A stretch of 48,068 bases of DNA from assembly GCA_030679255.1 (NCBI GenBank), contig JAUXTO010000042.1, positions 110,714-158,781 on the forward strand, given 5' to 3'. This document shows, piece by piece, positions 4,365 to 23,698 of this stretch. The notes under the pieces are model-generated. The model saw nothing but the letters and a program-made list of their open reading frames with translations, was not told where the DNA came from and made no database searches. Numbering within the stretch: the stretch's first letter is position 1; each line of letters starts with the position of its first letter. The translations under genes and the position numbers were made by a program. This DNA comes from Candidatus Gottesmanbacteria bacterium (GTDB lineage: Bacteria > Patescibacteriota > Microgenomatia > UBA10105 > UBA927).

Positions 4365-4680
4365 CGCTCCCAGAGGGAATCCCTGCCCGCTAGCGCCTGA
4401 GCCTAGCTCTGGCAGGCGGGGAACCTTCATTTCCTCTTTACCTGCCCGCCGCGCCATTAATAAAAAAGTACGGCTGTATGCGCTCCCGGTGGGAATCGAA
4501 CCCACAACCTACTCTTTAGAAGAGAGTTGCTCTGTCCATTGAGCTACGGGAGCCTATCGGTAATTATACAACGGGTTAAGATTTTCTGCGCGCTTTGGCA
4601 GGCGGGGAAGAGAGGTGCCCCGCCTGCTACACCTCCAGCGTAGCTCTGGCGGGCAGGTCTATCCGTTGAGCTATGGGAGC
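4365..4680 (-). pseudogene. Interrupted outer tRNA-Arg(TCT) with three palindromic insertions, one containing an intact tRNA-Arg(TCT)
   Basis: Joining 4680-4658, 4618-4607, 4440-4421 and 4381-4365 gives GCTCCCA TAGCTCAACGGATAGAGCA CCTCT CTTCTAA AGAGG AAAT GAAGG TTCGATT CCCTC TGGGAGC G, a full cloverleaf. Confidence 0.85.
4481..4553 (-). tRNA. tRNA-Arg(TCT), nested
   Basis: Acceptor GCTCCCG/CGGGAGC, anticodon arm ACTCT-CTTCTAA-AGAGT. Confidence 0.95.
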
Positions 4681-22494: not shown

Positions 22495-22806
22495 ATGCTT
22501 ATCCGAAAACGACTCATCGATAAAACGACCAGATTAAGCACACTGACCAATGCAATTGCCCATCGGTATCGTTTAGCAATACTCTATTTATTGGCCCATG
22601 ATCCGAAGGAAACGAGGGAACTTGCTTACGCCCTTGCGATACGGGAACCGCTCCTCATTCATCATGTACAAATTATGGTCAAATCAGGCTGGCTCAGACG
22701 GATTAAAACCGGCAGGCATGTGACGTATGAGTTGAAAGAAGATTGCGCTATAGAACTCAAGAAGTTTTTAGGAGATACTCCGTTTTTTCGTAATTTGAGC
22801 CGATGA
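22495..22806 (+). CDS. ArsR family winged-helix transcriptional regulator
   Basis: AIAH.YRL.IL.LL…….ELA..L.I….L.HH…M..SGW….K.GR.V.Y.L. Confidence 0.75.
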   Translation: MLIRKRLIDKTTRLSTLTNAIAHRYRLAILYLLAHDPKETRELAYALAIREPLLIHHVQIMVKSGWLRRIKTGRHVTYELKEDCAIELKKFLGDTPFFRNLSR

Positions 22807-22998
22807 TCCCGCTTAGCGGGACAACCTTCGCTTTATCCCAGTACCATTTAGCTCGCCTTTGTTTGGAGCCTCCCAACAGAATCGAACTGTTATCAGCGGT
22901 TTATCCCAGTACTTCTTGCTGGCGACACTATTGAGCTGGCGGGGAGGATCGGACTCCCGACCTACTGTTTATCCCAGTACCATTTAGCCGACGTCTTG

Positions 22999-23070
22999 AG
23001 CCGACGAGAGGATTTGAACCTCCAACCTTCGCTTTACAAAAGCGCTGCTCAACCATTGAGCTACGTCGGC
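22999..23070 (-). tRNA. tRNA-Thr(TGT), innermost and intact
   Basis: Acceptor GCCGACG/CGTCGGC, anticodon arm GCGCT-TTTGTAA-AGCGA. Confidence 0.93.
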
Positions 23071-23084
23071 GTAAATGTACGGGA

Positions 23085-23129
23085 CTAACTCACAGTATAA
23101 CTCACTTCGTTCGCTAACTGTGAGTTGAG
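23085..23129. repeat. 45-nt hairpin element (second copy at 23301-23345)
   Basis: CTAACTCACAGTA…CTCACTTCGTTCGC..ACTGTGAGTTGAG, two near-identical copies at tRNA anticodon split points. Confidence 0.85.
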
Positions 23130-23476
23130 CAAAACAGTTGCTCGGACTTTATCCGCCTCTGGCGGAACTGAGCTACGCCAGCTTAGAAGTACGGGATCCC
23201 GCACCTCTAAGCCAAATTGTACAACAATTTGGCAAGATGGTGCTGGGACAAAACCGTCGCTCTGCCGTTGAGCTAGGGAGGCGAGCATAAATGTACGGGA
23301 CTAACTCACAGTATTACTCACTTCGTTCGCAAACTGTGAGTTGAGCAAAACAGTTGCCCCGCCCGCTACGCCTGAGCGTTAGCTCTGGCGGGCAGGTCTA
23401 CCACTGAGCTACGCCAGCAACTCGTATTGAAATTGTACCAAAGACTACGAAGATCAACAACATTTGAGGTTAAAGA

Positions 23477-23698
23477 GTGGAAGTAAAGAAATAATTCCGC
23501 CTGCCAGCAATGCTTACGCAAAGCGTTTGCAGGCTGGCCCGGTAGGATGAAGGTATTTTCCCCGATTTGATCAATCGGAAGGACCGTCTCACTGACCAAG
23601 GCCAGTGAAGAACTTTAGTCCTGTCTCCTGCGCCAAAAATTGGTGCAGAATACCTCATTGTTCATGATTTTGTGGAGGAAAATATTCTCCATCTCCAC
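23477..23698 (-). ncRNA. Putative 6S-like rod-shaped RNA carrying two palindromic inserts
   Basis: Minus-strand TTGACA-17-TAAGCT promoter upstream. Terminal stem GTGGA/TCCAC, stems ATGAGGTATT/AATACCTTCAT and AGGAC/GTCCT around a central bubble, apical TCACTGGCC/GGTCAGTGA; no convincing ORF. Confidence 0.5.

Follow-up and report, generated by a model that had tools for sequence, protein, structure and literature searches.

In the window analysed here, a stretch of 48,068 nt from a Candidatus Gottesmanbacteria genome, four tRNA-Thr(TGT) genes lie nested one inside the other on the minus strand, and the locus was probably built by three insertions, one after the other, of small non-autonomous DNA elements belonging to a single family, by which one tRNA gene was serially replaced by the next. 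A first-pass annotation of the same DNA had proposed that an element repeatedly enters the anticodon loop while carrying a replacement isoacceptor, and this proposal is supported by the alleles of the locus, by the spread of the element to other tRNA genes and by the decay of the outer halves. The genome holding the window (G000; 1.45 Mb in 44 contigs, 95% complete) was assembled from a groundwater metagenome; related genomes are designated G001 and so on, sequencing runs X1 and so on, and contigs of G000 C23 and so on.

The coordinates of the four layers given in the first-pass annotation (Table 1) all hold on re-reading of the minus strand from 23650 to 22600. ARAGORN and Rfam agree with it on an intact innermost tRNA-Thr(TGT) (layer 1; 22998/22999-23070, minus; Rfam score 67.9 bits), which is the sole Thr(TGT) gene in G000 according to ARAGORN, and each of the three splits around it is seen, as described there, at TTTG|TAA (position 35/36) without target duplication. 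When the outer halves were joined in silico and scored, a check that the annotation had suggested, layer 3 was called as tRNA-Thr(TGT) with CCA encoded and layers 2 and 4 did not score, so that two of the four layers score as tRNA. Rejoined layer 2 has a 7-bp acceptor without mismatch and a 5-bp anticodon stem; it receives no ARAGORN call because of a 24-nt hairpin insert in the D-loop of its 5' half (23167-23144) and the T-loop TCCGATC. This D-loop insert is also present in G003 and in one named Levyibacteriota record. Layer 4 is the mismatched pair that had been described, with halves from different tRNA types (A-like 5', D-like 3'), and the 3' half does not pair with the 5' half. A 39-nt GC-rich hairpin (23396-23358), whose family has three further sites on the window's contig, sits in the D-stem of the layer 4 5' half, and in the 3' half a hairpin GTCCCGC-TAA-GCGGGAT (22822-22806) replaces the T-arm. 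The layer 4 5' half is probably the original chromosomal gene: its upstream flank is shared with G003, whose outermost gene is of type A. The position of the layer 4 3' half is occupied by a type-A 3' half in G001 and G003. The automatic intron search of ARAGORN did not detect the nests.

All three inserts follow a common plan, in which a hairpin (P1) begins right after the G of TTTG and is followed by a helix (P2) around a cargo tRNA. This shared architecture, like its spread beyond the locus, had been missed in the first-pass annotation. P1 has the consensus (T/C)CCC-A-GYAC...GTRC-GGGA, in place of which two of the three copies in the window have a CTCAACTCACAGT...ACTGTGAGTTAG hairpin, and P2 has the consensus TCCC-GYAC...GTAC-T-GGGA. 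P1 is continued without spacer by TCCCGTAC and 5-6 nt up to the start of the next tRNA; 3' of the cargo follow a spacer of 5-9 nt, a second 3' acceptor strand, about 5 nt and GTAC-T-GGGA, which passes directly into TAA. Type C is the exception, since its trailer is the complement of GCTC and the first 3 nt instead of a copy of the acceptor strand. The inserts measure 158-510 nt at this locus. The element ends TCCCAG...CTGGGA form inverted repeats.

Table 1. Layers of the tRNA-Thr nest and arms of the three elements, in minus-strand order
Feature	Description	Position	Strand	Called by
Layer 4, 5' half	type-A relative	23346-23418	minus	
Element 3, left arm	second CTCAACTCACAGT-type P1 (23345-23301), P2 5' strand TCCCGTACATTTATGCTC (23300-23283)	23283-23345	minus	
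Layer 3, 5' half	tRNA-Thr(TGT) type C, acceptor GCCTCCC	23249-23282	minus	
Element 2, left arm	P1 TCCC-A-GCACC...GGTGC-GGGA (23248-23197), P2 5' strand TCCCGTACTTCTAA (23196-23183)	23183-23248	minus	
Layer 2, 5' half	tRNA-Thr(TGT) type A, acceptor GCTGGCG, 3' terminus TTTG	23130-23182	minus	
Element 1, left arm	P1 of CTCAACTCACAGT...ACTGTGAGTTAG type (23129-23085), P2 5' strand TCCCGTACATTTAC (23084-23071)	23071-23129	minus	
Layer 1	intact tRNA-Thr(TGT), type D, acceptor GCCGACG; cargo of element 1	22999-23070	minus	ARAGORN, Rfam
Element 1, right arm	5-nt spacer, second cargo 3' acceptor strand CGTCGGCT, P2 3' strand to GTAC-T-GGGA	22972-22998	minus	
Layer 2, 3' half	TAA...CGCCAGC-T, T-loop TCCGATC	22934-22971	minus	
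Element 2, right arm	spacer, type-A 3' acceptor copy CGCCAGC, P2 3' strand to GTAC-T-GGGA	22904-22933	minus	
Layer 3, 3' half	GGGAGGC and encoded CCA	22864-22903	minus	
Element 3, right arm	GGCGAGC (pairs with GCTC and the first 3 nt of layer 3), TAAATG-GTAC-T-GGGA	22836-22863	minus	
Layer 4, 3' half	relative of type-D 3' half	22798-22835	minus	

Several measurements support this architecture. The P2 helices of the locus, formed by cargo leader and trailer, have 19-21 bp, and the arms of elements 1, 2 and 3 pair in duplexes of 20, 19 and 21 bp with -26.3, -30.3 and -29.0 kcal/mol, against -11.6, -13.7 and -11.9 kcal/mol for shuffles. Among 20 elements tested, 17 have a P2 of 17-21 bp (-21 to -31 kcal/mol versus -8 to -17 for shuffles) that comprises the cargo leader, the first 3-7 nt of the cargo and the trailer, with the cargo tRNA usually in its loop; G064 and G434 carry the cargo in P1 rather than P2. 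The distal sequence of P2 varies with the cargo and follows each cargo's 5' end, and in G011 and G023 the trailer copy complements the cargo 5' strand better than the cargo's own 3' strand. In an alignment of 13 homologues, 4 of the 12 basal pairs of P1 were changed on both sides, and variants that preserve pairing include CCCC...GGGG in G003 and GCA/TGC or GAAATTTC in place of GTAC. The second insert (345 nt), folded as single-stranded DNA, reaches -87.9 kcal/mol against -43.3 +/- 3.6 for shuffles (z = -12.4). The 13-mer GTACTGGGATAAA at the 3' ends of the inserts occurs exactly three times in the window, always at the 3' junctions, and with up to two mismatches it has 7 matches against 1.02 expected, a number reached by 0 of 100 shuffles.

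On the strand that passes from P1 to P2, the sequence GTRCGGGA.TCCCGYAC forms a palindrome of 16 nt. The strand opposite to it is broken at precisely this dyad by the host tRNA and has one bulged base 4 bp away on each side. If the element were excised and its ends joined, this pairing would give a rod closed by a loop at each end. The left arm is present twice in the locus, in elements 1 and 3 (copy at 23285-23357; 96% identity over 73 nt), and a hairpin related to the P1 of element 1, with a compensatory C/G change, occurs at two tRNA-Pro loci. The right arm of element 3 is 95-96% identical in G001 and G002, and its left arm also encloses an uninterrupted type C in G001. In 10 of 13 elements the P1 loop reads TGnTA(A/T)(A/T)AT, an extended -10-like word about 40 nt 5' of the cargo that was recognized by eye and has no control. 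P1 may give the cargo a -10-like promoter of its own, which would account for the one case of antisense cargo described below.

The insertions can be followed in the form of alleles. In the DNA runs X2 and X4, which belong to other groundwater studies, contigs join 22903 to 23249 and omit exactly 22904-23248; this joined form is the empty site of the second insert, in which the layer 3 tRNA is uninterrupted. Four genomes of the genus share the flanks of the locus and differ in its contents: in G003, type A encloses type E; in G001 it encloses an uninterrupted type C with a CTCAAC-type P1; in G002, type E encloses the same C and P2 as in G001, but with a TCCCAG-type P1; and in G000, D lies within A, A within C, and C within the A'/D' pair. 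Each of the types A and C occurs as host in one genome and as cargo in another: type A is an uninterrupted cargo without the D-loop insert in G023 and G011, and type C is uninterrupted in G001, G002 and others. The search for alleles with other or fewer layers, suggested by the first-pass annotation, thus succeeded both in sister genomes and in the DNA of other samples.

For the sequencing runs only contigs were used, and runs other than X1 held small shares of the locus. In Logan's separate assembly of X1, positions 22700-23520 (821 nt) lie in one contig of 13,115 nt with 0 differences; given that X1 may be the source sample, this assembly does not represent independent data. An artefact of metagenome assembly that strings together the tRNA variants of co-existing strains could be suspected, since G000 is a 44-contig groundwater assembly and the only run with the whole stretch may be its own source. 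We give this explanation next to no probability: a second assembler produced the identical 821 nt within the 13-kb contig, contigs of other studies match sub-parts without difference (X2 at 22832-22971, X4 at 23167-23283), and nests of the same design are present in many genomes of other projects, including contigs of more than 1 Mb.

The spread of the element was assessed in several ways. When the 661-nt locus was searched against 40 relatives, 13 Thr loci were read and a fourteenth (L029, tRNA-Trp only) was left out. All 13 have the same design, with an intact tRNA-Thr(TGT) or (CGT), P1/P2 arms and halves of an outer tRNA-Thr split at TTTG|TAAA, ATCG|TAAA or TTCG|TAAA; having been picked up through their similarity to the query, they form a biased sample. 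A covariance model of P1 and the start of P2 (R1), to which the left arm of element 2 is the best match in G000 (79.6 bits), matches 26 of 81 genomes of the family and 18 of its 35 genera, and in a phylum-wide sample it matched 1 of 150 other genomes, at a tRNA-Trp nest. The exact 12-mer at the P1/P2 joint was found in 22 of 401 genomes of the class, compared with 3 for the reversed control, and the 22 loci comprised 11 tRNA nests, 10 seemingly chance matches in coding sequence and 1 other palindrome. A scan of species genomes for a 15-base motif gave at least 119 stretches, most of them in unrelated large genomes and consistent with chance; genuine elements were found in named records of Candidatus Roizmanbacteria, Levybacteria and Levyibacteriota, the last placed by NCBI in the Microgenomates group of the Patescibacteria group. 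The element family is common among related groundwater bacteria, and the search in Patescibacteria for tRNAs flanked by halves of their own isoacceptor, which had been proposed, led to the same element around other tRNAs in many genomes. Among viral contigs the joint motif had 9 matches and an 18-mer from the 3' end had 16. The 16 all lie where neither a tRNA nor element arms are present (10 of them are copies of one stretch that by eye seems protein-coding), and they give no sign of carriage by phages.

The interrupted hosts are genes for Thr, Tyr, Cys, Trp, Ser, Glu, Pro, Leu, His, Val and Arg tRNAs, and the insertion always lies in a loop. In the anticodon loop the split reads G|TAA in Thr (TGT, CGT, GGT), CTG|TAAA (34/35) in Tyr, CTG|CAAA in Cys, CTC|CAAA in Trp, CG|AAA in Ser and TTTT|CAG in Glu; in the D-loop of Pro it reads CAG|TTGG, and in the T-loop of 3' fragments of Pro, Leu, His and Val it reads CTYG|AAC on the antisense strand. 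G000 itself has a second nest (G000:C23:84401-84600) of tRNA-Trp(CCA) and P1/P2 arms inside an outer tRNA-Trp that is split at GTC|CAAA and, once rejoined, still scores as tRNA-Trp. It also has two cargo-less elements of 62 nt (G000:C36:20620-20700 and G000:C38:243650-243760), which consist of a CTCAAC-type hairpin with the compensatory C/G change and TCCCGC-TTC-GCGGGA and lie antisense in the T-loops of tRNA-Pro 3' fragments, just 3' of intact tRNA-Pro(CGG) and (GGG). The copy on C36 is about 70 nt from a RAYT-like Y1 gene with an in-frame TAG.

This distribution bears on the possibility that local duplication, inversion and recombination among tandem tRNA-Thr genes produced the nest without a dedicated mobile element. 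The 5' half and arm of layer 4 do resemble those of layer 2, and the mismatched layer 4 reveals past recombination at the locus. However, the same arms surround tRNAs of at least 11 isoacceptor families in many genera, type D and its P2 arms recur at 93% identity in G006, a member of another genus, and the layers differ in sequence and each pairs within itself. The first-pass annotation was correct to reject a tandem duplication. Already contradicted by the distribution of the element, a purely local origin is extremely unlikely.

The fate of the interrupted genes was compared in 28 elements that were delimited by paired R1 matches, elements matched on one strand only being left out. Such automatic delimiting is possible because R1 also matches the reverse complement of P2, which shows the pseudo-symmetry of the element. 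A cargo tRNA is present in 17 of the 28, and in every case with a readable host it has the host's anticodon. On rejoining, 8 of these 17 hosts score as tRNA and the other 9 are decayed. The 11 cargo-less elements lie in tRNA fragments whose rejoined flanks never score as tRNA (0/11), and each has an intact tRNA within 600 nt (11/11). The element occurs in both orientations: cargo is on the host strand in 16 of 17 cases and on the opposite strand in one (G450), and all nine T-loop copies read, as well as one copy in the anticodon loop of an Arg(CCT) gene, run antisense to the tRNA. T-loop copies also occur in short 3' tRNA fragments located a few bases 3' of intact tRNAs. At recurring positions in the D-stem or T-loop, outer halves frequently contain additional small GC-rich hairpins, which are members of repeat families dispersed through the genome, and layers 2 and 4 of the present locus are visibly damaged. 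In G445 host and cargo tRNA-Pro are identical in sequence, which makes this event recent.

The first-pass annotation had offered a second possibility, in which the inserts are taken out of one nested transcript at the RNA level and several tRNAs result. The inserts would in that case be introns, excised by some novel bacterial pathway of cutting and ligation, and at least two layers would give a working tRNA-Thr(TGT). Introns would be in line with the perfect tRNAs obtained on rejoining layer 3 and 8 of 17 other hosts, with the cargo on the host strand in 16 of 17 elements, with insertions solely in loops of the folded tRNA, with covariation of P1 and P2 as helices and with a contig of the RNA-library run X20 that has the joined form of layer 3. 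The X20 contig adds nothing to the argument because the same form exists as DNA in X2 and X4 and therefore needs no splicing; X20 moreover covers only parts of the locus and is uninformative on starts, ends and splicing. Against introns stand also the 9 of 17 hosts and the layers 2 and 4 that have decayed, the 11 cargo-less copies, none of which sits in a gene that can be rejoined and each of which is accompanied by an intact copy, and the cargo of G450 and the T-loop copies, which are antisense to the host and to the tRNA, respectively.

The search for an RNA-level machinery in G000 gave a matching picture. The splicing endonuclease EndA (PF01974) had 0 matches at E<=0.1, while the control was detected in 4 archaea; RtcB-type ligase (PF01139) likewise had 0 matches, and no reverse transcriptase was found. 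At E<=10, Rfam recognized over 22700-23520 only the tRNA itself, and the arms matched no ribozyme or intron family and no RF00028 group I intron, in agreement with the earlier statement that the inserts lack a group I core. The same library does find a group I intron in another tRNA of G000 (56.3 bits), an initiator-like tRNA(CAT) at G000:C23:86575-86835 that is split after CT of the anticodon loop by a 189-nt intron (RF00028), which itself contains a TCCCGC-TTA-GCGGGA hairpin. At all three junctions of the nest the exons end in TTTG and the inserts in GGGA, with neither the U at -1 nor the G at the insert end of group I splice sites. The bulge-helix-bulge (BHB) motif has two 3-nt bulges separated by a 4-bp helix; by inspection, the bulges here are of 1 nt and both junctions lie at the foot of P1 and P2. 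RNA-level removal that yields several tRNAs is thus left without support from enzymes, ribozymes or group I introns, from the antisense cargo or from cargo-less copies in otherwise intact genes, and we consider introns very unlikely.

Integration by a classical integrase was considered as a further explanation, in which phage- or island-type elements would have integrated serially and later been deleted, leaving tRNA fragments. According to the account given in PMC9897764, integrases typically target tRNA genes and leave partial copies of them behind, and several intact tRNAs of these genomes do have 3' fragments close by on their downstream side. Integration of this kind would, however, give an intact gene and a displaced 3' fragment as a direct repeat, whereas here matching halves flank each layer without a repeated core at the junctions. 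The inserts have only 158-510 nt and a conserved two-hairpin architecture, the junction overlap between target and element ends is at most 1 nt, and no integrase gene is found among the 7 neighbouring open reading frames. An integrase origin is accordingly highly improbable.

We hypothesize instead that the element enters a hairpin loop of a tRNA gene precisely and without target duplication, here at TTTG|TAA of tRNA-Thr(TGT), and would thereby break the gene. Because the cargo is the same isoacceptor, the cell would lose nothing and would from then on depend on the cargo; and because the cargo retains the same anticodon loop, it could be hit again, so that layers would pile up. An element would persist if a functional copy of the gene that it breaks comes with it or already stands next to its landing site. 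Presumably the innermost tRNA alone is functional, and the outer halves would be relics that decay and gather other small hairpin repeats. The element would move as DNA, probably as a folded single strand entering hairpin loops, with the moving enzyme acting in trans: a single-stranded DNA intermediate and a structure-specific enzyme supplied in trans are suggested by junctions that are exact, by the fold into a rod, by targets in loops of either strand and by the lack of a reverse transcriptase. It appears to us evenly balanced whether this is a new class of mobile element, a double hairpin of pseudo-symmetric build that would enter hairpin loops of tRNA genes as a folded single strand, with whole tRNA genes as cargo in loops of its own.

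A number of observations weigh against serial insertion of a DNA element. The perfect rejoined tRNAs of layer 3 and of 8 of 17 hosts are predicted by recent insertion and by splicing alike, the covariation of P1 and P2 fits RNA as well as single-stranded DNA, and the confinement of the insertions to anticodon, D- and T-loops would also be predicted by recognition of a folded RNA. P2 usually pairs with the second, downstream acceptor 3' strand and not with the cargo's own, which is left unexplained. The formal scan for promoters and terminators gave no site (0) at this locus. Target sequences are only loosely defined (TTTG|TAAA, CTG|CAAA, CTC|CAAA, CG|AAA, TTTT|CAG, CAG|TTGG, CTYG|AAC), and the 5' flanks vary (TTTG, ATCG, ACTG, TCTC, CTCG, TTTT, GCAG) without a fixed tetra- or pentanucleotide, whereas IS200/IS605 elements have a strict target tetranucleotide. 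No mobility enzyme was linked to the element, the neighbours of the locus being an ArsR-type regulator, a methyltransferase and an M50 peptidase. Transposases of the Y1 type have 9 matches in G000 and are present in 60 of 81 genomes of the family, with a weak association (23 of 26 element-bearing versus 37 of 55 element-free genomes); G425, G010 and G436 carry elements and have no Y1 match, the hairpins that border the RAYT-like genes of G000 are not those of the element, and TnpB (PF07282) has no match in G000. A Y1/HUH-type transposase comes to mind first as the candidate mover; these associations speak neither for it nor clearly against it, and we rate it as less likely than not.

The element shares traits with several known systems. 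Group I introns of bacterial tRNA genes are likewise inserts of a few hundred nucleotides in the anticodon loop, without target duplication and with a patchy distribution; unlike them, the element has arms without a group I core, a 5' exon ending in G, C or T and an insert ending in A, carries a whole tRNA gene, has copies in D- and T-loops and in antisense, and leaves hosts that decay. The palindrome-associated transposable elements (PATEs) of IS200/IS605 and the REP/REPIN sequences are short non-autonomous hairpin elements with an unpaired stem base, which are moved by Y1 (HUH) or RAYT enzymes acting on single-stranded DNA. Like the present element, they cause no target duplication and have hairpins at or near both ends, but here the cargo sits in a hairpin loop and not between the ends, the cuts lie at the feet of the hairpins, the target is loose and no cognate Y1 gene was identified, with three element-bearing genomes lacking Y1 altogether. 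The terminal inverted repeats recall miniature inverted-repeat transposable elements (MITEs), without the target-site duplication of that type.

Compared with archaeal BHB introns, the single-nucleotide bulges of the element are 8 bp apart and the junctions lie at the dyad; moreover, the hosts are bacterial, EndA and RtcB were not detected, and the cargo tRNA makes splicing unnecessary. The likeness to archaeal BHB introns and split tRNAs lies in short related inserts at varied loop positions of tRNA genes, which, as far as the account in PMC3293823 goes, apparently spread there and are heterogeneous within a population at a tRNA-Thr locus. Integrative elements that target tRNA genes also break an essential gene and bring a replacement, which makes the insertion harmless and stable, and in the description given in PMC9897764 they restore the 3' segment; the present element brings the whole gene, has 160-170 nt rather than kilobases, targets the middle of a loop and has neither att repeats nor an integrase. 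Mitochondrial double-hairpin elements, as portrayed in PMC2800124, consist of one or two hairpins, have no flanking duplication (also in rRNA genes), vary between close relatives and have no known enzyme. They are organellar, carry no gene and have, in that portrayal, no described preference for tRNA loops, so that the likeness is one of analogy. The first-pass annotation had known of no bacterial description of nested tRNAs, and our literature search, with subscription journals outside its coverage, likewise found no such paper and none on this element.

Other nests and hairpin repeats were noted in the same genome. At about 4367-4680 of the window (minus strand) an intact tRNA-Arg(TCT) (4480-4553) lies within an outer tRNA-Arg(TCT) split at CTTC|TAA (35/36); its arms are different, being GC-rich (CCCGCCTGCC...GGCGGGCAGG) with a TGTATAAT word just 5' of the inner gene, and the same GC-rich hairpin family occupies the D-stem and T-loop of the outer halves. 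Lone 5' halves of genes resembling tRNA-Thr(CGT) and tRNA-Arg(CCT), with hairpin inserts in the D-arm, lie at G000:C29:2060-2150 and G000:C36:20860-20930 directly upstream of intact tRNA-Thr(CGT) and tRNA-Arg(CCT). The small hairpin repeat families of G000 include CAAAGCCWGGCTTTG at 16 places (a palindrome, on both strands), GCCAGAGCTA...TAGCGGGC and CCCGC...GCGGG, the last with 89 occurrences against 3.6 expected, about a quarter of which are CRISPR repeats; a CRISPR-like array of 22 repeats with 61-nt spacing at G000:C20:1-1330 contains CCCCGCTCGCGCGGGG (one CCCCGCACGCGCGGGG). Four of the five RAYT-like Y1 genes of G000 have a hairpin of their own at one or both ends, and Y1 genes of IS200 type are located at contig ends. 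ARAGORN lists 47 tRNAs in G000, including Ile(TAT) and two each of His(GTG), Trp(CCA) and Tyr(GTA), and no tRNA-Asn; only about 8 of the genes encode the 3' CCA. The non-coding stretch 5' of the nest (23480-23650, minus strand) is conserved in G001, G002, G003, G006, G023, G011 and G005, has an additional GC-rich hairpin in G000 and no Rfam match at E<=1, and is possibly an unidentified small RNA or leader.

To our knowledge, the interruptions described for bacterial tRNA genes are limited to group I introns and integrating islands. The nesting element would be a third way, common in one large uncultured lineage, and a minimal selfish strategy for occupying an essential single-copy gene, in which a working copy is supplied and the host is then unable to lose the element. 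tRNA genes would in this manner become mobile cargo, which would help to account for tRNA phylogenies that look odd and for errors in the tRNA annotation of these genomes; tRNA finders overlook the halves and elsewhere may call relics. The junctions at the dyad of the 16-bp palindrome and the bulges 4 bp to either side point to a specific structure-recognising enzyme, which could serve as a tool and may be one not yet linked to transposition. The nests represent dated layers that are usable for tracing invasions in natural populations. If our interpretation is true, the element is a self-rescuing gene-replacement cassette, a tRNA 'gene drive', and tRNA genes would be horizontally exchangeable among bacteria of the Microgenomates group, with the history of these exchanges written as nested relics.

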